NCBI GenBank assembly: GCA_043778225.1
Contig: JAYWGM010000056.1
Coordinates: forward strand, 20,594 to 84,593
Direction of reading: 5' to 3'
DNA length: 64,000 nucleotides
Origin: Deinococcales bacterium
Lineage (GTDB): Bacteria; Deinococcota; Deinococci; Deinococcales; JAAFIG01
Position numbers and translations under genes: made by a program
Shown here: piece by piece, positions 1 through 14,400 of the stretch
Layout of the letters: every line of letters starts with the position of its first letter
Position numbering within the stretch: the first letter of the stretch is position 1
The notes under the pieces: model-generated
Database searches by the model: none
What the model was told of the DNA's origin: nothing
What the model saw: the letters and a program-made list of their open reading frames with translations, nothing else

Positions 1-135
1 AAATACCGCCAAGCCCTGCGTTTAGGTGGCACAAAGGGGTTGCGCGAATTGTTTGCTGCGGCTGGCTTAGAATTGAATTTTGACTCGAGCCACATCGCAG
101 GTCTGATGAAAATTGTTGAAGCAGCGCTCGATTAG
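1..135 (+). CDS. C-terminal end of an M3-family oligoendopeptidase (partial, runs off the window)
   Basis: Frame 1 reads [44 protein letters not shown], resembling the C-terminal LGG...ELFAAAG segment of M3 oligoendopeptidase F-like proteins. Confidence 0.6.
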
Positions 136-1124
136 TAAGCTGGAACTCGAGTTGGTTTTCTAAATTCAATATCCTCGGGTTCGCCACCAGCTTCTCGCAT
201 TTGTAAATTTGGGTTCTGAGCGCGTAAAAATTCGATAATCCCCCAGACCAAATCATCTGGTGTGCTGGCAGCACTGGTAATCCCCACAGCTTTGACACCC
301 TCGAGCCAATCGGCTTTTATATCGGCGGCACTGTCCACACGGTATGCCTCGGGAGTCAGTTCTTCTGCCAACTCAACCAAGCGCATTCCGTTAGAAGATG
401 TCAGACTCGAGACCACTAAGAACAAATCCACCTGTGGGGCAATAACTTTGACGGCAGCTTGACGGTTCTTGGTGGCATAGCAAAGGTCGCTTCTCGAGGG
501 GATGGTTAGGTTTGGGAAGCGTCTTTTGAGAATATCCACGGTTTTATCGGTGTCGTCCACGCTTAGGGTGGTTTGGGTTAGCACAATGCACTTATCAGGG
601 TCTGGTACTAGCACGGTATGTGGGTCTTGCATTTTAGAATCGGCTTTGCGGTTGCCAACAACGTTGACCAGAATTGTGTCTTCTGGAGCTTCGCCAAAAG
701 TTCCAATGATTTCTTGGTGCTGGCTCGAGTCGCCGATTAAGAGAATGCTGTATCCCATACTTGCATAACGCTTAGATTCAGAATGCACTTTAGTCACCAG
801 TGGACAAGTCGCATCCAAAGTTGTCAGACCGCGTTTATTGGCTTCCTCGCGCACTTTGGGCGAAATCCCATGAGCGCTAAAAACCACAGTTTGCCCTTGC
901 CCCTGCATCCCCTCGAGTTCGCTAAGACTTTCCACAAAACGCACACTGTGTTCTGCCTCGAGACGCTGCACCACCGTTTGATTATGGACAATCGCGTGAT
1001 AGGCGACAATATCGCCCTCACCGCTTATTTTGTTCTGTTCGGCAGCTTCTTTCAAGGCATCTATTGCCATGACCACACCGGCACAGTACCCACGCGGACG
1101 AGCCAGAATTACAGTCTCTATCAT
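132..1124 (-). CDS. ispH: 4-hydroxy-3-methylbut-2-enyl diphosphate reductase
   Basis: [48 protein letters not shown] and ASTP motifs; start set at MIETVILA, preceded by TATCCT 6 nt upstream. Confidence 0.97.
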
Positions 1125-1128
1125 GGGT

Positions 1129-2283
1129 TTAGGATAACGCGCCAACTGGGGGCAAGGTGTCTCGAGCCACATTCGCCAAAAATGCTTGAACTTGGGCGGT
1201 CAAACGCGCTGTCTCGAGCAAAAACGCATCATGACCATGAGGGCTGCTGAGTTCCCAGTATTGACCGTTTTGGACAGTTTCGGCAATTTCTCGAGCCTCG
1301 GCTGGCAAGTACAGCAAATCGCTCGAGATGCCAATACTTAACAATGGCACAGCAATCTGCTCGAGTTGGCTAGGGGAGATGTCGAATTTATCCATCGCTT
1401 TGGTAATAGAAATATAGCAGTTGGCATCAAAGCGCTCGAGTAAACGCTCGCCTTGATGCTCGAGGTACGTTTCCATCGCAAAGCGGCTTGGCTCGGTTGG
1501 ACTGGCACGGCGACCTTGGGTGAGACCAAAAGATTCTGGACTGCGAAAAAACAGGGTTGTGATGGCTCGAGCTAACGCTAAGCCCTGTGGTTGGCGGCTG
1601 TATTTACCCGCCTTAAAATCTGGGTCGTTTTGAATCGCCATTCGCGCCAAATGGTTAAACGTAATGCCCCAAGCACTATGGCGGGCTGGCGCACCAATAA
1701 TCACGGCTGCCCCAATCCGTTCTGGGAAAGCCCGTACCCATTCGAGCGCCTGCATTCCGCCCATGCTGCCGCCAATCACGGCTTCGATGCGTTGCACTCC
1801 AAGATGCTCGAGCAGTGCGGCTTGAACTTTTACCATGTCTGGAATAGTGATGTCCGGGAACTGATTGCCATAAGTGCGGTTGGTATTAGGATTGACACTG
1901 CTTGCCCCAGTGCTGCCATAGCAACCGCCCAGCACATTGGCACAAACAATAAAATTCTGGTCGGTGTCGAGCATTCGCCCAGCCCCCAAGGCTTCGGACC
2001 ACCATGAAGCCACGCTGCTCGAGCCAGTTAGGGCATGGCAAACCAGTACAGCGTTGTCTTTGCTGGCGTTGAGTTGCCCATAGGTGCTGTAAGCCACCCG
2101 CACCATTTTCAGTTCGCCGCCTAACTCGAGTTTAAGCGGTTCATGTACAAAAAGCGTGGTGTGGCGCACATCGAGGTCAGAAGGTTTTGGCTCAGGGAAC
2201 AAAACCCGAACTTCAAAGTCGCCAAGTCGTTCAATTTCAAAATTTTGTTCTGGCTTAAAAGAAACGGTCATGATGCTATCCAT
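1129..2283 (-). CDS. metX: homoserine O-acetyltransferase
   Basis: [25 protein letters not shown] nucleophile elbow, RFDAN, HGHDAFL; downstream of metY. Confidence 0.95.
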
Positions 2284-2531
2284 TCGCTACGAAAATCAAA
2301 GGCACAATACTCCAGAATCAGGTTTTCGATTTCCGACTGCAAGGCTTTTTTAAGGCTTTGATTTGAACTCAGTGCCAAGGCGCGTTGCAGGTTCTCGAGT
2401 TGCTGATGCCAGGCTTGGTTTTCTACAGCGCACTCGAGTTTGCCACGTGGAAAACGCCGCTGCTCGAGACCAGTTAAATTTTGAGTCAGCCGACGGCGTG
2501 AACCACAAGTTGGACAATCATCCTCGAGCAT
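2268..2531 (-). CDS. small hypothetical protein with CPTC motif, between metY and metX
   Basis: 87-aa ORF fills the gap exactly: starts 2 nt after the metY stop and overlaps the metX start region. Confidence 0.55.
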   Translation of the reverse strand: MLEDDCPTCGSRRRLTQNLTGLEQRRFPRGKLECAVENQAWHQQLENLQRALALSSNQSLKKALQSEIENLILEYCAFDFRSEWIAS

Positions 2532-2533
2532 TT

Positions 2534-3940
<1,407 letters not shown>

Positions 3941-3954
3941 TTAAAACCCATTCT

Positions 3955-4165
3955 CTTATCTCTGCCGCACTGCGCGGCTGGAATTAGCACCGAAAGGGTT
4001 TTAGAATTTTAGAACCAACTATACAAATTCACTCACCGTTTTCGGTGAGTAAACATTCGCATGGTTGGGGTTTTAGACATAAATTCTTTTTTTCCTAGGT
4101 TGCTGCGACGCTGGGTCGTGCTTTGCACGGTTTTCGAGCCAGTCTCTTGCGTCGCTCTGGATAAG
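3955..4165 (-). ncRNA. SAM-I (S-box) riboswitch with large insertions
   Basis: Minus strand: CTTATCCAGAG...GAGACTGGC...GCAACC...GGTGCTAATTCC...AGATAAG, all conserved SAM-I blocks in order; upstream of metY-metX and followed by a terminator. Confidence 0.88.
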
Positions 4166-4207
4166 TTGGTGGCACGCCTTAGGCGCACAGGTATAAACCT
4201 GACAAGA

Positions 4208-4237
4208 ACTGTAAGATATTTGTGACTATTTTGTCAA
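4208..4237 (-). promoter_or_regulatory. sigma70-type promoter of the met leader
   Basis: TTGACA-18 nt-TACAGT on the minus strand, about 40 nt upstream of the riboswitch. Confidence 0.55.
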
Positions 4238-4265
4238 GTCACTCGAGCGACTGGTGGCGGTTGTG

Positions 4266-4628
4266 TCACTCGAGCGATTTGCGTTCGCGCCGTGCTTCAC
4301 GACGCACTTTTGGGTCTAAGCCAATCATCAAGAAAAAATTCTCGAGTGCATTTTCTTTGCCTTTGACATCGGCATGGGCATCTTCGGCAGTACCGTTGAC
4401 AAACGGCAAGGCTTTGTACAACTCGAGGGCTTTGACAACCACATCCTCGGCTGCTCCTGTTTCGGCAAGTTCAGCGAGTGTGCCATAAATTTCACGGCGA
4501 GACTCAGCGTGATGCGTAAAAACTTCTGGGTTTGGAGTTTCGGGCGCTCTGAGTAAATCCTGTTTGGCAATGCGGCGATAATGCTTTAAGCCACGTAAGA
4601 TTTCTTCACTCGAGTACGTTACATTCAT
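4266..4628 (-). CDS. hypothetical cytoplasmic protein
   Basis: 120-aa ORF MNVTYSSEEILRGLKHYRR... with GGAGG RBS and protein-like composition. Confidence 0.8.
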   Translation of the reverse strand: MNVTYSSEEILRGLKHYRRIAKQDLLRAPETPNPEVFTHHAESRREIYGTLAELAETGAAEDVVVKALELYKALPFVNGTAEDAHADVKGKENALENFFLMIGLDPKVRREARRERKSLE

Positions 4629-4781
4629 GCTGAACCTCCAGAGATAAGAAACACAAAAACCGCCCCGAGGCGGCAACGAAAAGAAAGAGTTCGGAAGTTG
4701 GAATCCACGATGCCCAGAGTATAGTTTTTGTATGTGAAGCGTGTCAACAAAAGTACAAGTGTAGCCGTGTTACTTTGAGTC

Positions 4782-5648
4782 ATGACCGAAGTTCAAAAAG
4801 GTTTTTTAGCTGCCCTGACCGCCAGTGCAATTTGGGGCGGAATGTATGTGGTCTCGAGAATTGTCCTCGAGGTCATACCCCCACTGCCTTTGGTGGCGCT
4901 GCGAATGCTGATTTCAGCCCTGACGATTTTTGCGCTTTATGCCATTTTGCGCCGCGATTGGCGCATCCCTAAAAGTGCTTGGACTCGAGTGGCAGTCATG
5001 GGTTTGGTTGGTTATGCGGTCAGTATTACGGCACAGTTTATTGGTACAAAGCTGGCAGGTGCAGCTTTAGGAAGTTTAATCACGACGGCTTCACCACTTT
5101 TTACAGTGGCAATTGCCGCTCTTTTTGGACTCGAGAAAGTTGCTTCAAGGGCTTGGCTTGGGTTGGGGCTAGGGATGGTGGCGGTTTATTTACTTTCTGG
5201 AGTTGGCGGCGGCAGCGACATCACTGGGGCATTGTGGCTGATTTTAGCCGCCCTGACTTGGGGGATTCTGGGGGTGGTCGGTGGGCAAACGGTGGTAAAA
5301 CTCGATGCTTTTGCGGTCACGGCTTGGGCAAGCCTGATTGGGTTTTTTGCCACGCTTGCCCTGATTCCACTCGAGACCAGCCCGATTCGCTGGGAAGCGA
5401 TTAACTTACCGGTCGTGCTTGGGATCTTGTACCTTGGCATTGTTTCGACGGCGGTGGCTTTTGCGCTTTGGGTCTACGGGGTCTCGAGGGCTGGCAGTGT
5501 GCTGTCTGGGATTGCTTTTTTTGCCCAGCCGGTGGTTGGTTCGCTACTGGGGGCGTTGCTGCTTAGCGAACAACTTGGCTCGAGCTTTGCAATTGCGGCG
5601 GGTTTGCTTTTTTTAGGGGCGTGGTTGGCGCGACCTGTCTCGAGATGA
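4782..5648 (+). CDS. DMT/EamA family transporter
   Basis: About 10 hydrophobic segments; IWGG...R and LYLGIVST...QPVVG...LLSE duplicated EamA pattern. Confidence 0.92.
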   Translation: MTEVQKGFLAALTASAIWGGMYVVSRIVLEVIPPLPLVALRMLISALTIFALYAILRRDWRIPKSAWTRVAVMGLVGYAVSITAQFIGTKLAGAALGSLITTASPLFTVAIAALFGLEKVASRAWLGLGLGMVAVYLLSGVGGGSDITGALWLILAALTWGILGVVGGQTVVKLDAFAVTAWASLIGFFATLALIPLETSPIRWEAINLPVVLGILYLGIVSTAVAFALWVYGVSRAGSVLSGIAFFAQPVVGSLLGALLLSEQLGSSFAIAAGLLFLGAWLARPVSR

Positions 5649-5738
5649 GGTACGGTTATGACCTGCATGTTTCGATCAGGTTTAAGCGGATAATCTAAAA
5701 GCTGGAAAAGGTACTTGAACCTAAAAGTATTTTTGCGA

Positions 5739-7238
5739 TTATGGTGTCCTCAAATAACCTTTAATTTGCTCAAAACCTTTCCACAAACACGCCGCTCCTG
5801 ATGCAACCATATTTTGTGGCGCAAAAAAACCACTGTCGCTAGGAACGGCTGATGTTGGATTCTCGAGGGTTGAAAGCAGAATTTGATTGAGTCTTTTACC
5901 ATGATATTCACGGTTTGATTTGATGTTATCAACAATAATTTCTGAATACTCGTGCAGTATTAAAACAACGCAGATTTCTGGGCGCAGGTTCAATAGGTCT
6001 ACGGCAATTCCAGAAACTAGAAAATCGGCTTTACCCGTTTTGAGCATCTCGAGAATAACCGAAAGCTGTGGGTCTTTCTTCATAATTCGGTACGGGATTC
6101 GAGGTTCTTCATACTCTTCGGATTTGTCTAACACTTCCTCGAGCAATTCGCAAAAAATCCGTTTATCTATTTGCCACTCTTCTTTATTCTCTGGCAAAAG
6201 TAATTCTTGAAGCGTACATTCGCTTTGAAACATACCGGCAGGGGCAACATGAACTGAATTCGGTTGAGCTGCTACACCTTCTGCTGAGCGTGTGCCAAGG
6301 GTGCAACGGTATTGCCGGTCGGCATCTCTATAGACAAATAGCATGGCACAACCAATCGTCGCGGCTCTGCCTACGCCTTGCAAGATTTGAAGCTGCTGAT
6401 TCTGGTCAGTTCCCATTGCTATTTCTATGCGTCTTCGCTGCGGTAATTTTTTGGCGACTCGAGCAAATAAATCTGCTTCACTGCCGCCTTGACTATCAGC
6501 TACTAATTGGCTCATCAATTCCCAGCCTAAAGACTCGGAGGTGTCTAAACCTGTAAAGTAATCTGAAACATACAAGTTCATTTTCGGCGGAGTGTCCGAG
6601 TCAAGATTTTTCAGCGCAAAAGTGCATTTACTAACACCGTTGTCGAGATGATTGCTCCCGTTTTGGCGCAAGGTTTTTGAACTAGCGTAAAACCTATAGT
6701 CGTAATTTGGTAGGTGATCTTGAGCTTTATACGTTAAGTCCATCACAATCTGATTTTGAAAAAATTCTACACCCTTATCTTCAAAAGTATTGTCCGTAAA
6801 TGAACACGGATATATTTTTCCATGTGCAGTCAGAAACGTCACTCGATTGTGATAATACCAGACTAAAAACCGAAGCACCAAACCAGATGCTCGAATTTGG
6901 GTGACTTTCTCGAGTTGGACTTGGCGTTCTTGGATGGTAGCACTATTGACCTGCTTAAACTGCTCAAAGGTGTTGGCAGCCACCAGAGCTAGGCTACTAC
7001 CTGTCCAAATTTTATATCGCTCGAGTAATCCAGAAATTTCTGCTTGATTTAACTCGAGCTTTTCAAGCTGCGCCCGTCTGTTTTTTTTGATACTGCCATC
7101 GGCATACGTACCGCCATTTGGTTTTTTAACCAAGTTTGTGATTTCCCTGTCACTTTTGCCTTGACTTGACATCTCAAGGATTTCAAAAAAATGAGGCTCT
7201 AATTTCTCGAGAATTACAAATCGCTCTAAGTCGTCCAT
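5739..7238 (-). CDS. HTH plus Nudix-like domain protein
   Basis: N-terminal LuxR-like helix pattern (LEMSSQGKSDREI...IKKNRRAQLEKL); C-terminal HVAPAGMFQ...CELLEEVL...GIAVDLLNLRPEIC resembling divergent Nudix folds; AAGGAG RBS before MDDLERF. Confidence 0.6.
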   Translation of the reverse strand: MDDLERFVILEKLEPHFFEILEMSSQGKSDREITNLVKKPNGGTYADGSIKKNRRAQLEKLELNQAEISGLLERYKIWTGSSLALVAANTFEQFKQVNSATIQERQVQLEKVTQIRASGLVLRFLVWYYHNRVTFLTAHGKIYPCSFTDNTFEDKGVEFFQNQIVMDLTYKAQDHLPNYDYRFYASSKTLRQNGSNHLDNGVSKCTFALKNLDSDTPPKMNLYVSDYFTGLDTSESLGWELMSQLVADSQGGSEADLFARVAKKLPQRRRIEIAMGTDQNQQLQILQGVGRAATIGCAMLFVYRDADRQYRCTLGTRSAEGVAAQPNSVHVAPAGMFQSECTLQELLLPENKEEWQIDKRIFCELLEEVLDKSEEYEEPRIPYRIMKKDPQLSVILEMLKTGKADFLVSGIAVDLLNLRPEICVVLILHEYSEIIVDNIKSNREYHGKRLNQILLSTLENPTSAVPSDSGFFAPQNMVASGAACLWKGFEQIKGYLRTP

Positions 7239-7386
7239 AAGAATCTCCTTTTGGGTAGTTCCCACCTACCCCTGTGGGTCTGGCTTTAGTTTTGTATATC
7301 GTAAATAATCTTCCTCAGAAGCGCTTCTTGCACCACAAAAATTCAAAGTTCGTCAGCCATTACTCTTCTCATAGTCGAGGTTTTGT

Positions 7387-7656
7387 ATGAAACAGAATTC
7401 CGCTACACAGTACCAAATTTCGTTGCCAGAAAAGTTCTCTAAGACCCAGTTGAAGTTCATGACCCCCGTCGGAACTTTGGGTTTTTCAAAACCTAAATCC
7501 GAATCTCAACAAGTAGCAAAATTACAAGTGAATTGGACAGCAGTATTGGTCGTAGTTGTGATTGTTTTAGGGGCATTACTTTTACAATCAAAACCAAAAC
7601 CACAAGATAATTGGCTCAAGCCTGTGGAGGGTAGTCAAACCTGTAGTGCGTGCTAA
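7387..7656 (+). CDS. small protein with one hydrophobic segment and a C-terminal CSAC tail
   Basis: GAGG RBS; WTAVLVVVVIVLGALLL hydrophobic stretch; ends KPQDNWLKPVEGSQTCSAC. Confidence 0.6.
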   Translation: MKQNSATQYQISLPEKFSKTQLKFMTPVGTLGFSKPKSESQQVAKLQVNWTAVLVVVVIVLGALLLQSKPKPQDNWLKPVEGSQTCSAC

Positions 7657-7660
7657 GTGC

Positions 7661-7696
7661 TAAAGTTGTGGCTGTGAGGGGGCAGCCACAACTTTA
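7661..7696 (+). promoter_or_regulatory. perfect 14-bp hairpin abutting the start codon of the TPR gene
   Basis: TAAAGTTGTGGCTG-tgaggggg-CAGCCACAACTTTA; the last A is the A of the ATG at 7696. Confidence 0.7.
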
Positions 7697-9336
7697 TGGA
7701 AAATATTTCAGTGCTTATAAGGTTGATTCAAACTGCCCTACAAAACAGTGCTTTTTCACCAGCCTTACTGATTCGAGTTGAGAATTTGCATTTACAGGTC
7801 AATCAATGGCGCGATTTTTATAGCAGCATCAGCCCAATAAATGGAGTATCCCCTTTTGTACTTCGGCTTCGCTTACTTTGCAACGTTCAAGCTGCCATCT
7901 ATCCCGCACTCGAGGAATTTATCAGTGACCCAGAGGTGCAAAAATACCTTAACCAAGCAGAGCTACGCATTTTGTTGGCTCGAGGGTTTTGTACTGTCAA
8001 TAAATACCATAAAGCTGCGGTGTATCTCCAAGATATTGTTGTCCCAGATAATCCACGCTATCAGTTTTGGTATTGGAGCGCAAAGGCACTCATTTGGGTG
8101 AGTCAAAAAAATGAAAATTGTTTTGTGGCTTTTGAAAATGCAAAAACTGTTGTGACTTTGCATGAATATGGGGTGGTTTGCCTGAACCAAGGCGCAGCTT
8201 ATGAAGCCACAGGAAGACTTGTAGAAGCCGAAAACATTTGGCACGAAGCGCTCAAGCATTTAGAATTACCAAGTTTTGCGCTTGCACTTACGCATTATAA
8301 CCTCGGTGAGATGTTACTGGTGAGTCTAAACCCAGAAGCACAACATCAATTTGACTTAGCCTTAAAAATCTCGAGCCACAAAGTTGCCTTACAACTGCGT
8401 TCGACTGCATTGTGTGGACTTGGCGACTGGCAACGCTTACACGGGCATCTGCCTCAAGCCAAAGAGTTTTATCGTCGCGCATTGCTTGCAGCGCAAAAAC
8501 AAAACATCGTTAAAGACCAAATCAATGCTTTTGCAAAACTTAGTTACTTGTGCTTATTGACCAAAGATTTAGAAACTGCCCTCGAGTACCTAAAAAATGC
8601 CACTGCCCTAATTCCAGATGTCCATTCGGATACGTGGGTCTACACCATAGAAGCGCTGGTGCATTTGCGGCGGACAGATTTAGTGGCTGCCGCAAATGCA
8701 CTGACTCAAGCCATTTCGCTTGGCAATATCGCCACCCAACGGGCTAGGGTTATTCGGGCGGAACTCGAGCGACAAAAAGGCAATCCTACCCAAGCCCTAC
8801 TCGAACTCGAGAACTTAGATTTAACCAATGCTGGGGCTAGAGAAACCGTTTTGGTTTTACCCGAACTTTGGGCTTGGGCAAAAACGCAGGGAATGGATTC
8901 GCCAGAACCAATTACCGAACAAAAACGGGTTTTTAAGGTTCAAGCCCTCGACCAATTCGAGGTTTGGATGAACCAGAAAAAAATCCATCTGACCGAGCGA
9001 AGCGCCGAGCTATTGGTGTACTTGCTGCACTACAAAACCCGAAGTGCTGGCGATTTAATTTCTGAACTGTACTACGAAGAATTAACAGCAGAAATTGATT
9101 TAACGCAGCGCTTAAAATTAGTGCAGCAATGCCAAAAGAATTTTAACCATCATTTAAGGCGCTTACGCGAGGTACTGCAATGGAAAGACGTGGTCAGACT
9201 CGAGAAACGCCAGTACCATATCAATCTCGAGGATGCTATTTGGGATTTGGATTGGTTAGAACAAAGTGATCTCAAAACACGCTTCTTGCCAGCCATTCAA
9301 CGGCGTTGGATACAGGACATTGCCGAACCTTTTTAA
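7696..9336 (+). CDS. TPR-repeat protein with C-terminal SARP/OmpR-like winged-helix domain
   Basis: TPR helices (LNQGAAYEATGRLVEAENIWHEAL, ALCGLGDWQRLHGHLPQAKEFYRRAL); C-terminal KVQALDQFEVWMN...AELLVYLLHY...LISELY...HHLRRLREVL. Confidence 0.8.
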   Translation: MENISVLIRLIQTALQNSAFSPALLIRVENLHLQVNQWRDFYSSISPINGVSPFVLRLRLLCNVQAAIYPALEEFISDPEVQKYLNQAELRILLARGFCTVNKYHKAAVYLQDIVVPDNPRYQFWYWSAKALIWVSQKNENCFVAFENAKTVVTLHEYGVVCLNQGAAYEATGRLVEAENIWHEALKHLELPSFALALTHYNLGEMLLVSLNPEAQHQFDLALKISSHKVALQLRSTALCGLGDWQRLHGHLPQAKEFYRRALLAAQKQNIVKDQINAFAKLSYLCLLTKDLETALEYLKNATALIPDVHSDTWVYTIEALVHLRRTDLVAAANALTQAISLGNIATQRARVIRAELERQKGNPTQALLELENLDLTNAGARETVLVLPELWAWAKTQGMDSPEPITEQKRVFKVQALDQFEVWMNQKKIHLTERSAELLVYLLHYKTRSAGDLISELYYEELTAEIDLTQRLKLVQQCQKNFNHHLRRLREVLQWKDVVRLEKRQYHINLEDAIWDLDWLEQSDLKTRFLPAIQRRWIQDIAEPF

Positions 9337-9418
9337 CTTAGGTATAACTTTTGTGCCACTGGGATTTTAGGGGCTTTGTTAGGCTTGGTCTCGAGCCATA
9401 GGGCAACCGAGGTGAAGT

Positions 9419-10777
9419 ATGGCTTGGATGGTCGTGAATTGGTCGGAATTCATGACCGTCCAAATGGGAGGCAGTGTGTTGAATCTCGAGATACGCCCAA
9501 ACACCATTTACTTAAACCAGCAACCGTTGCTACTGACCCAGCCATGGCTCGAGCTTCTACAACTGGCAGCCCTGCACACCCTCGAGTCACCCCCAGACCT
9601 AACCCCGCTTGATGTCCAACAACTCCCCAGTTGGCGTGCTAAATCTGTTGAAGTGATTAAATCCAGCCTGTCTCGAGAACACAAAAAATGGGTCAGACTA
9701 TACGGCGTATCGTTTCTAACTGGACAACTCGGTAAAGCCTTTAGGCTAAATCCAGAATTAACCCCAGTGCTGACTGAATCTGTTGCGGCACTCCAAGAAA
9801 AACTGCGCCCAAAAAGCAATTTACTGGCAAAACTCGAGAACCCAGAAGCCGAAGTCCAAGCCAACCTGATGCTGGCAAAACTGAGTATCGAAAATGGTTT
9901 ACTCGAGAAAGCCTTGGTTGCAATCCAAAACGCCCTCAATGCCAACGCCAGCCCAGTGTTAAAACAAGAAGCCTTATTTTATCAAGCTCGAGTCTACGAA
10001 TTTAGAAGTGAATTTACCGTAGCGCACCAAAGCCTACAGCGCTTAAAAAAGTGCCTCGAATGGCACGAAAAAAACAATTCGCCCAGCCACCCTCGAGCCA
10101 AGGCATGGTTTCAGATTGGAACAGCCCGAATTTATTTGCGCCAAGCCCAGTGGCAAGAAGCCAAAAGCGCCTACTTAGCAGCCAAAAAATACCTCGAGCC
10201 ACACCATTACCGTGAATTGGGGATGGTTTTTAATGGGCTTGGCAGGGTTGCTCAGAACACCACCCATCTGGATGTTGCCCAAAAACACTACGAACAAGCG
10301 CTCGAGTTTTACCACCGTGCCGAGTGGACTTGGGCGGTTCAAGCCACGCTCAACGATTGCGGCGTGGTCTACAAGGAGCGTTGCAAGCTAATCTGGAAGC
10401 GCCAAAATCACCAAGCCCAGAAGCACCTCGAGCAAGCCTTTAGGTACTTTACGCTCTGCCAGCAAAATTGCGAAGCTGCCCAGACGGGCGATGAAAGTGC
10501 GGTACTCGAGATTAACCTTGGCTGGTGCTACCGAATGTTTGAACAATTTGACCTTGCCCGCCAGTGGCTTGAGAAAGCCGTGCAGTTGGCAACAAAAGCC
10601 CGCAATTTATCGGATTTGGGCTGGGCGTATATGGAATACGCCGAACTCGAGTTGGTGACCAATGGCAAGCTGGCGGCGGCAGAAATGTACAGCCGTGCTT
10701 GTGGTGCGTTTGAAGATGGGCAGATTGATTCGGCTCGAGACTTGGCTAAATACAAACTTGAGGAGATGCTGAGGTGA
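9419..10777 (+). CDS. TPR-repeat protein with putative N-terminal winged-helix domain
   Basis: Multiple TPRs (VFNGLGRVAQ...AQKHYEQAL, NLGWCYRMFEQFDLARQWLEKA); N-terminal IYLNQQPLLLT...IKSSLSR; start could alternatively be the GTG at 9476. Confidence 0.75.
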   Translation: MAWMVVNWSEFMTVQMGGSVLNLEIRPNTIYLNQQPLLLTQPWLELLQLAALHTLESPPDLTPLDVQQLPSWRAKSVEVIKSSLSREHKKWVRLYGVSFLTGQLGKAFRLNPELTPVLTESVAALQEKLRPKSNLLAKLENPEAEVQANLMLAKLSIENGLLEKALVAIQNALNANASPVLKQEALFYQARVYEFRSEFTVAHQSLQRLKKCLEWHEKNNSPSHPRAKAWFQIGTARIYLRQAQWQEAKSAYLAAKKYLEPHHYRELGMVFNGLGRVAQNTTHLDVAQKHYEQALEFYHRAEWTWAVQATLNDCGVVYKERCKLIWKRQNHQAQKHLEQAFRYFTLCQQNCEAAQTGDESAVLEINLGWCYRMFEQFDLARQWLEKAVQLATKARNLSDLGWAYMEYAELELVTNGKLAAAEMYSRACGAFEDGQIDSARDLAKYKLEEMLR

Positions 10778-10857
10778 AGCTAACCGCCATACTCGAGATT
10801 GGCGATAGCACTGGCAAGCTTGAGCCAAAATAGTCACACTTTGCATTATCAGGAGGT

Positions 10858-10917
10858 TTATGTACTCGGACGGTTCACCCGCACCAGTGGAATATTTTCG
10901 TTGGCGTATAAGTTCAC
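10858..10917 (-). pseudogene. internally deleted DUF5615/PIN-like toxin remnant
   Basis: A GTG overlapping the DUF433 stop reads MNLYANENIPLVRVNRPST*, i.e. the typical DUF5615 N-terminus (LYANENxPL) joined to its typical C-terminus (LxRVNRP). Confidence 0.65.
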
Positions 10918-11240
10918 GCTGCCTCGTTGAGAATAATGTCTTGTTCAATTTGTTCTTTGTGCATGGCTGCAAATGCCCAAGTGTTGGTCAAATCCTCGGC
11001 TCGCAAACTTGGGTAATCGCGCAACAAATCTGCTTCGGACGCACCAGCCCGACGCAGGGCAACCAGCAACCAAACAGGAACTCGAGTCCGAACCACACAA
11101 ACCTCACCGCCGTTGATATTTGGGCGTTCTTCGATGCCAGCGTAAGCACCTTGCCAGTCTTTTGTGACCCATTGCAGCACAAGGGCTTTCTCGGCAGGAC
11201 TGAGCCTAAAAATTAGGTTTTGCATTTCTTGTAACGACAT
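10914..11240 (-). CDS. DUF433 family antitoxin-like protein
   Basis: IEERPNINGGEVCVVRTRVPVWLLV...GASEADLLRDYPSLRAEDL signature. Confidence 0.9.
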   Translation of the reverse strand: MSLQEMQNLIFRLSPAEKALVLQWVTKDWQGAYAGIEERPNINGGEVCVVRTRVPVWLLVALRRAGASEADLLRDYPSLRAEDLTNTWAFAAMHKEQIEQDIILNEAA

Positions 11241-11460
11241 GACTAGGAGGGTAAACGCCTTGGCTTTGAATGTCAAGAAGTGGCGTTTTTTTAAGAGGAA
11301 GTAAGGCAGTTGGTCAGTGGTACACCATCTCGAGGAGATGCTGAGATGAATGTTACCACCTGAGGCAAGCAAAAATCAGAGGTTTTATAAAGTTGTTACT
11401 GAATAAAAGTGCAATCTGTGCGTATTGTGGGAAAATACCGAGGAATCGAAAGGGGAGTAT

Positions 11461-14400
11461 ATGAACAAATGGTTTATTGGCATTGGTTTAAGTCTGGCAT
11501 TGGTGGCGTGTCCAGCCGTACCAACGATTGAGAGTGTCAAAATAAAATCTGCGTTCAATACAGTTGCGGCTACCGAAACTACCAATTTGGCTATTGAAGT
11601 AAAGGGTTCAGGTGCTTTTGATGCTCGAGTAGACTGGAGTATCGTTCCAAGTCTTGGAAGTGTTACCGCCCAAAGCGAAACCCAAGCCATATACACTGCA
11701 CCACTTGTCTCGAGTGACACCAACATCGTTATTCGTGCCACCTCAAAACTCGATCCAAGTAAATTCGGTGAAACTACCATTCAAATAAAAGCACCAACAA
11801 TTACTAGCCTTACTGCAACACCAAGCAAAACAACCCTCGAGAGTGAAGAAACCACTTCTATCAGTGCAAAACTCGAGGGAACAGGTGCATTCAATACAGA
11901 TGTACTCTGGTCAGTTGTGTCTGGTGGAGGTAGTTTATCAAGTGGCACAGGTAATCCAGTTAATTACACATCCCCAAAAGTTGGAGTAGATACAGATGTG
12001 GTACTGCAAGCCACTGCCGTAGGTGACAACAGCAAAAAACAGAATGTATCGCTAAAAGTTTTAACAGCTAAAATTATAACTGGAATCACCTTAGAGGCAA
12101 CCCCACGCTCAATCCCATCAGCAACAGGAACAAGCAATATCACAGCAACAGTCAATGGTACAGGCGCAATTCTAAATGCGGTGACATGGGAAATCGTTAG
12201 TGGTGGCGGAAACCTCATTAACCCGACAGATACCAATGTAACCTACACAGCACCCACTGTTTCGGTAGATACCATCGTGACCATCAAAGCCACCAGCAAA
12301 GCTAACCCCAGCCAGAGTGCCACAATTACCCTGAGTGTGGTCATTCCGCCAGTGGTTTCTGGTATCAACTTGACCGCAACACCAAACAGTATTGTTGCCA
12401 CTACAGGCGTGAGTACCATCAGTTCGACAATTATTGGCTCTGGTTCGATTCAAAATGCAGTGACATGGGAAATCGTTAGCGGTGGCGGAACACTCAGCAA
12501 TGCCACAGATACCAGCGTGACTTTTACTGCTCCAAATGTGACCGTAGAAACCATTGTTACCATTAGAGCCACCAGCAAAACTGACTCGAGTAAAACAGCC
12601 ACAACCACCATTACAGTCACAATCCCAACGGTGGTCTCCGGTATTACCCTAAGTGCAACAGCCCGTACCATTGCATCCGGAACGGGTAGCAGCACCATCA
12701 GTGCAGTAATAACGGGTTCTGGCACATTCCAGAACGCAGTGACATGGGAGATTGCCAGTGGTGGCGGAACACTTAGCAATTCTACAGATACCAGCGTGAC
12801 CTACACTGCACCCAGCATTGTTCAAGACACCATTGCGACCTTAAAAGCCACCAGTAAAACCGACTTGAGCAAAACCGACACGATAAGTTTAATTGTGATC
12901 GCACCAACTGTAGTAAATAGTGTCCAAGTGACTTCTACCCCAAGCATTATTAAGTCAAATGCCACAACAACCCTGAGTGCCGTTATCAGTGGCACAGGCA
13001 ACCCAAATCCAAATGCCAAATGGGAAATTGTAAGTGGTGGTGGGGCGCTCAGTTCAGTATCAGGTGCAAGTGTGACCTATGCGCCAGCCGTGGTGACTAC
13101 AGACACTAACGTGGTAATTAAAGCCACCTCGAGCGACGATGCCAGCAAGTCCGCCAGCAAAACCGTGGTGGTTGAACCTATTCCAACAATTACTGGGATT
13201 AGTGTTTCGATGCCATTTACCACCGTTCAAGCAAATGGCAGTATTGCTTTAGGTGCGAGTATCACTGGTTATGGGAATCCTGATTTAAGTGTCAAATGGA
13301 GTGTTGTAGGCAATCAAGGCACGTTGACCAATACAACAGGTGCCGCTACAACCTTGAACGCCCCAAATGTAACCGCTCAAACCAAAATTCAAATCAAAGC
13401 TGAAAGTGTCCAGGACTCGAGTAAATCCACCTTGACAGAAATAACAATCAATCCCAAACCACCCATCGAAGTGATTACAACCCCAGCCAGTGTTAGTGTT
13501 AATGCTACCCAAGCAGTAGCGATAAGCGCAGTCGTGAATTACGCTCAAAATGCAAGCGTGGCTTGGACAAGTTCGATAGGAATACTTACACCAAATGGTA
13601 ACTCTGCGATATGGAAAGCCCCAAATGTTTTGGTGGATACAACAGCCACCATTACAGCCACTTCTATAGAGGACTCGAGCAAAAAAACAACCATCAGTGT
13701 CAACATTAAAGCGGCTGTCATTGAGGTTTATGCACTACCATTGCATCCAGCTTACAACGATGCGGGTTTTAACTTTGGAACTGGGGTGAGTCCAGCCAGT
13801 ATTGCTGTAGCGTATGGTATTCATTTTCACTTGGCGGCTCGAGCCAATGGCGAAAGTATAGGTGGTACATGGGCTGTTGGAAACGCTGGAATTGTTCAAC
13901 TAATGTCTACAAACACAACCAATGGCTCGGCAAACGTAGCACGATTTGTTGGTAGAGGTATTGGTCAAAGTAGCACCGTTACATTTACAGCACCAGGTGG
14001 TCAACAACGACAAATTCAAGCCAATATTGGAGCAATAGAACCCAAGCGACTACCAACCGCCTGTGCCAATGGCGATGGTGGTTATGTTGCCATTCGTCCA
14101 GATGGACGATACGTTATCAGTGGTAACCTCAATGGTTTAGGACTGCCCAATATTTCGGGAGTGGTTTCCGAAACAATACTTGGTTCAGCTACATCCAGAA
14201 CTTTGCGCGGTTGTATTACAGGCATCAACACCATTACCTTATTAACAACTGACCCAAGTGTTTCTTATACATCGGGGGAATTCAACTTAACAGGCAGTAA
14301 CTTACAAGCCCTGACTGAAACGAGACACTGTCCTATTCTGAGCGTCCAACAAAAATACTATACAGGTCATTTGGTATGTCAAGATCGTACTGGTTTGGCA

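Follow-up and report, generated by a model that had tools for sequence, protein, structure and literature searches.

Regulation by riboswitches and regulation by leader-peptide attenuators are commonly presented as alternatives. One well-studied hybrid, which integrates unrelated signals, is the mgtA leader of Salmonella and E. coli, where a Mg2+-sensing RNA is combined with mgtL, an open reading frame (ORF) with proline codons (Park et al. 2010 cited in PMC6460261). As far as PMC6460261 describes it, mgtL overlaps RNA that must pair, and the Pro substitutions were designed such that the pairing was kept. Here we report on the leader of the metY-metX genes on the minus strand of a 64,000-nucleotide stretch of contig JAYWGM010000056.1 (GenBank assembly GCA_043778225.1) from a Deinococcales bacterium, referred to as the window, in which a mini-ORF rich in Met codons lies within helix P3 of a predicted SAM-I riboswitch, i.e. 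a riboswitch for S-adenosylmethionine (SAM). Our data suggest that this leader is probably a SAM-I termination riboswitch with a translated leader peptide, sensing Met-tRNA, nested in P3 of its aptamer.

The mgtA and metY leaders are alike in that a ligand-sensing RNA and a short ORF are present in the same leader, with regulatory codons that report (mgtL), or would report (metY), the supply of tRNA or amino acid. Moreover, slow translation of the ORF raises downstream transcription in the mgtA case, according to the part of that work covered here, and the same direction is proposed for the metY leader. In mgtA, as far as its published description was covered, the ligand is Mg2+ and the signals are disparate, whereas the metY leader would read SAM and its precursor Met-tRNA, that is, one pathway. 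The metY ORF also differs in being nested in a defined aptamer helix, P3, in having an intrinsic terminator as its read-out, and in belonging to Deinococcota rather than Proteobacteria. Finally, mgtL has been tested experimentally while the metY-leader ORF is predicted from sequence, and the likeness is one of function, not of membership; with ligand, phylum and peptide all differing, sequence similarity to mgtL would not be anticipated.

For Deinococcus deserti, differential RNA sequencing predicted 14 putative leader peptides with the ATG at the mapped transcription start site (TSS), or for one peptide at -1; Table S9 includes Deide_09379 (MMFRFLSKMRMLRCS) ahead of the Met-tRNA ligase gene and MTALCCPSTR ahead of the Cys-tRNA ligase gene (PMC4007540, as far as covered here). 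The metY leader shares with the classical attenuators and with the D. deserti metG leader a variable short peptide, cognate codons, a downstream terminator and AUG-CGA-AUG. In contrast to the D. deserti-type metG ORFs, which are (nearly) leaderless, positioned at the transcript start and stand-alone, the metY-leader ORF has a Shine-Dalgarno (SD) sequence, comes about 120 nt after the transcript start and forms part of a riboswitch helix, and, unlike in classical attenuators, we detected no 2:3 antiterminator pairing for the arm opposite the ORF. To our knowledge there is no classical attenuator for methionine, an amino acid with a single codon.

With canonical SAM-I riboswitches (RF00162), such as the 119-nt copy upstream of metK in the window genome, the metY leader has the P1-P4 core, the terminator platform and the methionine/sulfur genes in common; it is set apart by a P3 about 100 nt longer that carries SD and ORF, and in genera g1 and g3 also by a P2 hairpin. 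In plants, nascent-peptide arrest by SAM at CGS1/MTO1 takes part in Met/SAM homeostasis. In arrest peptides of this kind, as described in part for TnaC (PMC8429421), the speed of leader-ORF translation likewise sets the expression of downstream metabolic genes, but they need a long conserved nascent chain in the exit tunnel, while the metY-leader ORF keeps R-M plus one residue.

A full-text literature search did not find a leader ORF embedded in a SAM riboswitch; most subscription journals lie outside its coverage and absence is hence unproven. If the proposal holds, the ribosome would act on formation of the ligand pocket and not on a separate expression platform, and sensing of an end-product (SAM) and of a precursor (Met-tRNA) would be combined for one pathway. 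Our findings also point to CGA-AUG as a conserved codon-level methionine sensor and suggest that long riboswitch insertions, which drop Rfam scores below threshold, may contain functional ORFs. Leaders of this type would represent compact natural two-input parts.

The mini-ORF in the metY leader

The preliminary description of the window had reported a Met-rich mini-ORF within an insertion in P3 of a SAM riboswitch, and on re-reading the window its coordinates, strand, sequence, three Met among 15 codons and stop within the inserted hairpin proved exact (see the table for coordinates). The nesting was confirmed as well, since the RF00162 match (4167..3953, minus strand) encloses the ORF in P3. 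The Met residues are encoded by codons 1, 7 and 9, and the stop codon (4035..4033) is located inside the 3' strand of the apical hairpin. The ORF lies wholly within P3, such that aptamer and regulatory ORF share nucleotides of one leader, and its frame is open further upstream, up to a GTG at 4188. As a control, we inspected the 377 ATG-initiated ORFs of 10-30 codons in the window: 25 have at least three Met, and MRM is present in the leader mini-ORF alone. Judged from the window alone the mini-ORF is unremarkable relative to chance, and its significance comes from the relatives.

Conservation of the ORF

The comparison included 21 distinct leaders from five genera, of which 17 form one set and four (L057, L058, L044 and L060) stem from a search that took no account of the ORF region. 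All have a P3 extension of 97-189 nt. The preliminary description had suggested checking whether ATG, Met codons and frame are conserved in the met leaders of relatives, and we observed that they are: in 21/21 leaders the first ATG past the P3 base GCAACC shares its frame with an invariant CGA-ATG, at a spacing of 21, 24, 27 or 99 nt and with no intervening stop. In 20 of the 21, an SD-like run (AGGA, GGAG, AAGG, AGGG or GGGA) ends 4-12 nt 5' of the ATG. When the segments were shuffled, an in-frame ATG together with an SD arose in 0.14-3.2% of the trials per sequence. The caution raised earlier about the long SD spacing holds for the window leader, where it is 12 nt, but this is a peculiarity of the window genome: the spacing is AGGA-5 nt-ATG in the closest relatives and 4-8 nt in the relatives overall.

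The ATG is kept while its flanks diverge in sequence and length between lineages. Compared with its sister L057, leader L058 carries 72 additional nt (24 codons) within the ORF, with the frame kept; the insertion is GC-rich and another frame is also open, so only its being a multiple of three counts. ORF length varies between 10 and 47 codons and the position of the stop varies with it, and the stops have been exchanged (TAA/TGA/TAG) yet retained. The only residues kept are [M/N/T]-R-M-[F/P/L/R], with variable N- and C-terminal parts. Internal Met accounts for 13% of the leader-ORF codons, compared with 1.9% across 1,019 long ORFs from the window genome. As read from these leaders, a variable peptide with fixed sensor codons is the classical leader-peptide pattern, in which function depends on the regulatory codons alone.

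The same codons in metG leaders

CGA-ATG also occurs upstream of metG. In the window genome, the metG (PF09334) leader (G000:C63, approximately 72,445-72,600, outside the window) has no riboswitch and consists of a TATACT box, a mini-ORF a few nt later and then a terminator. The mini-ORF reads ATG AGT CGG AAG TCA TGG CGA ATG CCA AGG TGC GCC CTG CAA CCC TAG, i.e. MSRKSWRMPRCALQP followed by a stop, and thus has TGG-CGA-ATG in place of ATGCGAATG. With the region upstream of metG as query, 10 of the 19 family genomes matched, and the eight leaders that were readable (L097-L104) all carry a mini-ORF with CGA ATG CCA, encoding ..WRMP.. or, once, ..GRMP... The layout of the family metG leader, with a TATACT box, a near-leaderless mini-ORF (..SWRMP..) and a terminator, is homologous to that of the D. 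deserti leader peptide for metG.

One Deinococcus genome encodes the published D. deserti peptide letter for letter, with ATG CGA ATG and with CGC for the two other Arg. Among 30 Deinococcus loci upstream of metG, 23 have a Met-rich mini-ORF, six have none that passed our filter and in one the metG anchor is absent. CGA-ATG is present in 18 of the 23 mini-ORFs and ATG-CGA-ATG in 16, typically as ..MMRMP..; other Arg codons in these peptides are mostly CGC, CGG, CGT or AGG. As the CGA-AUG module is common to the P3 ORF and to stand-alone metG leaders, which differ in RNA context, we argue that it would work at the level of translation.

As a separate matter, a second leader ORF with ATGCGAATG was looked for in the window genome; the motif occurs 34 times, 11 of these in small ORFs, and no other one lies in an obvious met leader.

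RNA structure around the ORF

Folded separately, each P3 is predicted to form one long hairpin. In the minimum-energy fold, 3-4 of the 4 nt of the SD-like run are paired in all 20 leaders that have one. The pairing partners differ between lineages: AGG:CCC in the window, UCAAGGA:UUCUUGA in genus g5, GGAAGA:CUCUUCC in L014 and UUGAAAGGCUU:AAGCUUUUCAA in L012. That they are wholly different argues for a real stem, and in every case the purine run is on the 5' arm just ahead of the ATG. CGAAUG, also on the 5' arm, is invariant, and its partner on the 3' arm is AUUUG, AUUCG, UUCGC, UCGU, UUGCAU (in another register) or none, which argues for a constraint on the sequence of the coding strand itself.

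Two pairings of the 3' arm were considered and rejected: a classical 2:3 antiterminator formed by the freed arm, for which the complementarity is no better than in shuffles, and a pairing with the 5' strand of P1 that was seen in the window and is not conserved.

Proposed mechanism and alternative explanations

The 5' arm of P3 carries the SD, the AUG and, 6-8 codons on, (AUG-)CGA-AUG, and the 3' arm is predicted to pair back over them. The SD would thus be exposed only until the nascent RNA zips up, and a ribosome would have to load co-transcriptionally, when the 3' arm, about 90 nt later, is still unmade; during translation it would hold P3 open. When Met-tRNA(Met) is plentiful, the ribosome would pass the Met codons and terminate, P3 would close, SAM would be bound and transcription would terminate. 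When Met-tRNA is scarce, it would dwell on CGA-AUG and leave the aptamer unfolded until RNA polymerase has passed the decision point; pairing of GAGAATGGG with CCCCTTCTC, the antiterminator, would win over the delayed aptamer, and metY-metX would be transcribed even with SAM present. Termination would accordingly require SAM and, in addition, rapid decoding of the Met codons. The earlier suggestion of a hybrid that senses both SAM and Met-tRNA is strengthened by the conservation and by the module in metG leaders; that the ORF is translated and that a stalled ribosome would block SAM-dependent termination is inferred.

Several observations weigh against this proposal. The SD is paired in folded P3, so translation would be possible only in a short co-transcriptional window. 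With a 30-nt footprint placed on CGA-AUG, 19 of the 20 leaders still had P1 and a paired P3 base in equilibrium folds, and the number with an antiterminator was unchanged, which means that any effect of the ribosome must be steric or kinetic. For the freed 3' arm against the P1 5' strand, the P4-antiterminator region and the terminator 5' strand (21, 21 and 20 tests, respectively), no pairing reached z < -2; as judged by these predictions the leader lacks the alternative pairing of a classical attenuator, and in the absence of a 2:3 helix the effect, if any, would be by blocking aptamer folding. Individual leaders deviate, in that L044 has no SD-like run, L011 has one internal Met only and the window leader has the 12-nt SD spacing. 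Similarity at ATG-CTC-GAG is inflated by a genome-wide CTCGAG word, which accounts for CTCGAG in the terminator loop and probably for ATG-CTC-GAG at several ORF starts. The family is known only from metagenome-assembled genomes (MAGs), and the leaders are kin, so the counts overstate independence. Moreover, the invariant CGA is not rare here (18% of the Arg codons, 9.8 per 1000), and a role as a rare codon was rejected for the window genome; amino-acid coding alone is therefore insufficient and there is a further constraint, either at the RNA level or specific to the codon. Work in yeast suggests that CGA in the P-site, read by inosine, slows decoding of the next codon, which would make CGA-AUG a sensitised sensor.

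The constraint on CGA leads to the reading in which CGAAUG and the P3 extension constitute a structural or factor-binding motif of the methionine regulon, with an incidental and untranslated ORF. CGA is fixed at the nucleotide level though Arg has five further codons and CGA is not a rare one, CATG(G)CGAATGCC is alike in metG and metY leaders at the nucleotide level even though a difference of 1 nt puts the upstream part in another frame, SAM-I P3 helices tolerate insertions, and by our own reading UGGCGAAUGCCA could form a 4-bp hairpin in metG leaders. GCGAAUG(CC) may possibly have a role at the RNA level. As a full account, however, we hold this reading to be improbable, because it leaves unexplained the in-frame first ATG in 21/21 leaders and the SD-like run in 20/21 (as against 0.1-3% of shuffles), the indels in multiples of three and the stops that are exchanged but kept; the mini-hairpin is impossible in most metY leaders, and the metG motif sits in a mini-ORF a few nt past a TATACT -10 box, in D. 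deserti at the mapped TSS. The same conservation bears on whether the ORF arose by chance within a structured insertion. The preliminary description had allowed for this, and the window, where at least three Met occur in 25/377 small ORFs and the local SD spacing is 12 nt, could not decide the matter by itself; with the ORF kept in 19/19 genomes and 21/21 leaders of five genera, amid diverged flanks, a chance origin is contradicted and we consider it very unlikely.

If the ORF is translated, its nascent R-M-[F/P/L] might stall the ribosome in response to free methionine, SAM or some other ligand rather than Met-tRNA. The kept residues extend beyond the Met codons ([M/N/T]-R-M-[F/P/L/R], with Arg invariant and Pro or Phe usually next), and CGS1 in plants sets a precedent for ligand-dependent arrest, as does TnaC, to the extent described in PMC8429421. 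Such an arrest peptide is nevertheless unlikely: the conserved stretch is just 3-4 residues, the upstream residues that would occupy the exit tunnel are not conserved, the extra Met codons are variably placed (MCMRM, MRMRM, HRM, MMRMP), as codon sensing predicts, and the regulated genes include metG, for which tRNA charging is the natural signal. Translation could also serve a generic purpose that involves no amino-acid sensing, e.g. guarding P3 against misfolding, coupling ribosome and RNA polymerase, shielding the RNA from Rho or RNase, or resetting the SAM-bound aptamer. Burial of the SD in P3 means that ribosome loading and aptamer folding necessarily compete, and both the footprint-constrained folding, which gave no codon-specific alternative structure, and the free position of the stop agree with such a role. 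It has no need for an invariant CGA-AUG, though, and leaves unexplained the module in metG attenuators as well as the Cys-codon version that three Deinococcus SAM-I leaders carry (two before a sulfonate monooxygenase-like gene; see below), and we regard it as improbable. Among these possibilities, the Met-tRNA-sensing leader peptide within the aptamer is thus the reading that we favour.

With regard to the tRNA genes of the window genome, the tRNA-Arg(UCG) gene is found only inside an array of 26 tRNA genes, and tRNA-Arg(ACG) is encoded elsewhere. The array is on one strand and spans approximately 4.2 kb (G000:C19:9937-14171, outside the window); of the 68 tRNAs in the assembly, those for Arg with GCG and UCG anticodons are confined to it.

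Aptamer, expression platform and operon

At gathering thresholds, RF00162 gave no match in window positions 1..12000, and a permissive search was required. This gave 33.3 bits (E 1.1e-5) over the full model (1-108), below the gathering score of 44.4. Compared with the model, the P3 loop is expanded from 3 to 92 nt and P2 from 19 to 40 nt, and it is because of these two insertions that the score stays below the cut-off. Homologous family aptamers without the P2 insert reach 67-80 bits and those of genus g1 33-38 bits. The SAM-I core nucleotides (CUUAUC..AGAG, GCAACC, GGUGCUAA..CC and AGAUAAG) are invariant columns in alignment A1, and by core and context the leader belongs to the SAM-I family. 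Its predicted fold has an energy of -90.7 kcal/mol (z = -4.2), and 0/200 shuffles were as good.

RNAalifold, applied to a MAFFT alignment of 17 leaders, predicted 30 pairs in P1, P2, the P3 base and P4 and in the apical hairpin, and 7/30 show compensatory changes. In the consensus the apical hairpin shows GC/GU/AU variation; the body of the P3 extension, this hairpin excepted, was not recovered from that alignment. Per-sequence folds were therefore used for the P3 extension in place of a consensus, and covariation there is described, not counted.

The putative antiterminator has 8-9 pairs across the leaders; in genus g1 it shares one nucleotide with P1, which is just 6 bp long there. The terminator sequence CCCCTTCTCGAGAAAGGAGGGG, followed by Ts, is kept in metY-type leaders. 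Feature coordinates are collected below together with the peptides encoded by the P3 ORFs.

Table. Features of the metY-metX leader and operon in the window, and peptides encoded in P3 of related leaders
Feature	Position	Strand	Description
Leader mini-ORF, MSKTPTMRMFTHRKR and stop (window peptide)	4080..4033	minus	ATG TCT AAA ACC CCA ACC ATG CGA ATG TTT ACT CAC CGA AAA CGG TGA; 15 codons + stop
SD-like AGGA	4096..4093	minus	12 nt ahead of the mini-ORF ATG; pairs with CCC 3998..3996 in folded P3
AUG-CGA-AUG (Met7-Arg8-Met9), putative sensor codons	4062..4054	minus	CGA-AUG invariant across the family
Apical hairpin of the P3 extension, ACTCACCG-AAAA-CGGTGAGT	4050..4031	minus	contains mini-ORF codons 11-15 and stop
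Promoter-like site TTGACA-18 nt-TACAGT	4237..4208	minus	10/12 matches; TTGACA and TACAGT conserved in the genus alignment
SAM-I (S-box) aptamer, predicted	4167..3953	minus	215 nt; RF00162; P1 = CTTATC 4165..4160 : GATAAG 3960..3955
Extra hairpin in P2, CCGTGCAAAGCACG	4130..4117	minus	alignment A1: present in g1 and g3, absent in g4 and g5; g2 leaders also without
P3 helix	4103..3987	minus	117 nt; base GCAACC 4103..4098 : GGTGC 3991..3987 plus ~100-nt extension, a long imperfect hairpin
Putative antiterminator 5' strand, GAGAATGGG	3955..3947	minus	complementary to terminator CCCCTTCTC, 8/9 pairs; 1-nt overlap with P1; predicted role
Intrinsic terminator	3926..3893	minus	stem 3926..3905, T-run 3899..3893
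metY, O-acetylhomoserine sulfhydrylase	3847..2534	minus	437 aa; PF01053 457 bits; TIGR01326 681.8 bits (cut-off 495); SD AAGGAG 3860..3855
metX, homoserine O-acetyltransferase	2283..1129	minus	384 aa; NF001209 382.5 bits (cut-off 331); PF00561; downstream of metY
L005 peptide			MTQLFTMRMFNHRLG
L009 peptide			MTQTCTMRMFNHRMVFGVAL
L010 peptide			MLKPMCTNRMFSHRMVTDFGV
L011 peptide			MFYTQQNRMPKHR
L012 peptide			MLDATTMCMRMLRHRIGARPRFTLMQAARA
L013 peptide			MLKTKHNQMRMFNRQTVD
L014 peptide			MLETTYTMRMPCGQLVRGFAL
L015 peptide			MTESQMRMRMFSDRTVRSVLI
L028 peptide			MLETQYNMRMFRRQTVI
L057 peptide			MLETIKMCTRMFSHRMVAGLVSI
L060 peptide			MLTGNHMRMPTRRTVRGVLV
L044 peptide			MTDSRRMRMR
Deinococcus Cys-type P3 ORF, first			MTDTRFNPPVLPTCCRRC and stop; ATG start
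Deinococcus Cys-type P3 ORF, second			MTRIPFNTTVSPASCRRC and stop; ATG start
Deinococcus Cys-type P3 ORF, third			TTSLFHRQTQAPRPGYPCCC and stop; TTG start

Between metY and metX there is an ORF of 87 aa (2268-2531, minus strand) that has no Pfam or NCBIfam match and overlaps the metX start by 16 nt. Directly 5' of P1 (window positions 4173-4189, minus strand) we observed GTGCGCC-TAA-GGCGTGC, a small hairpin rich in G and C; two further genomes of the order (L067/L068) have a hairpin, CCGCGCC-GGG-GCGCGG, at the same place 5' of the aptamer.

Distribution among relatives

A DNA search of 41 relatives identified the leader in 7/7 other genomes of the genus, with 67-77% identity. An exact pattern scan of one genome per species (185,579 species) gave 16 loci, all in Deinococcales or Deinococcota MAGs, and a scan of metagenomes with the strict pattern gave 0 matches. 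In the family, a survey with the Rfam model that placed no requirement on the ORF predicted a long aptamer (198-281 nt) in 19/19 genomes, every one of which contains the mini-ORF. Most family genomes also have a short canonical SAM-I copy, and in two of them a second long copy (L060 and L044) is found ahead of a metY paralogue.

L044 (G013:C1:11731-11928) has a metK-type core (CTTCATC..GATGAGG), and its P3 ORF contains CGA ATG CGA ATG. There is no obvious terminator, and a hairpin, GGAAGGAAC..TCCTTCC, lies ahead of the SD of the metY paralogue, which suggests translational control in this case.

In the order as a whole, SAM-I was predicted in 146/151 genomes. Outside the family the matches are 97-180 nt long (among the best 150 of 235 matches), and no SD with an ORF was seen in the P3 helices of about 50 nt, the size found in Thermus and Meiothermus, that we examined. 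Five Deinococcus genomes gave 13 SAM-I matches of 91-180 nt.

Cysteine codons in Deinococcus SAM-I leaders

In a DNA similarity search, 3/111 Deinococcus genomes were predicted to have a SAM-I aptamer with a P3 of 100-113 nt, scoring 55.8 bits in one of them. In these leaders, L083 (G052:C22), L084 (G161:C10) and L085 (G162:C7), the aptamer starts at approximately position 1520 of each oriented locus. Each P3 contains AGGAGA, three nt and then an ORF that ends in Cys codons (..TCCRRC, ..SCRRC and ..PCCC, each followed by the stop). A second mini-ORF with the SD GGAAAGGAAC follows shortly behind the aptamer in all three, approximately 215-245 nt past the aptamer start, and encodes MCATRCWP in two genomes and MCMLRCRR in the third.

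In two genomes, the Cys-type leader is followed by a small gene together with an alkanesulfonate-monooxygenase-like gene (489 bits, slightly short of the cut-off of 510). In the third, the downstream protein may be an ABC substrate-binding protein, which its N-terminus resembles by eye. The sensor codons change with the leader, and a sulfur-assimilation gene follows in 2/3 of this small sample. As a tentative generalisation, in which we have less confidence than in the proposal for the metY leader itself, the solvent-exposed P3 of SAM-I in Deinococcales may represent a slot for amino-acid-specific leader ORFs (Met before metY in one family; Cys, as UGY runs, in the three Deinococcus leaders, two of them before a sulfonate-assimilation gene), the leaders acting as two-input gates in which the ribosome controls folding of the aptamer. 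CGA-AUG might then be a slow-decoding sensor pair, shared with metG attenuators in two families, in which the Arg codon in the P-site sensitises the ribosome to the supply of Met-tRNA.

We also noted that the Arg before the second Cys is encoded by CGA (CGA TGT) in 3/3 of the second mini-ORFs, which echoes the CGA-AUG of the Met leaders.

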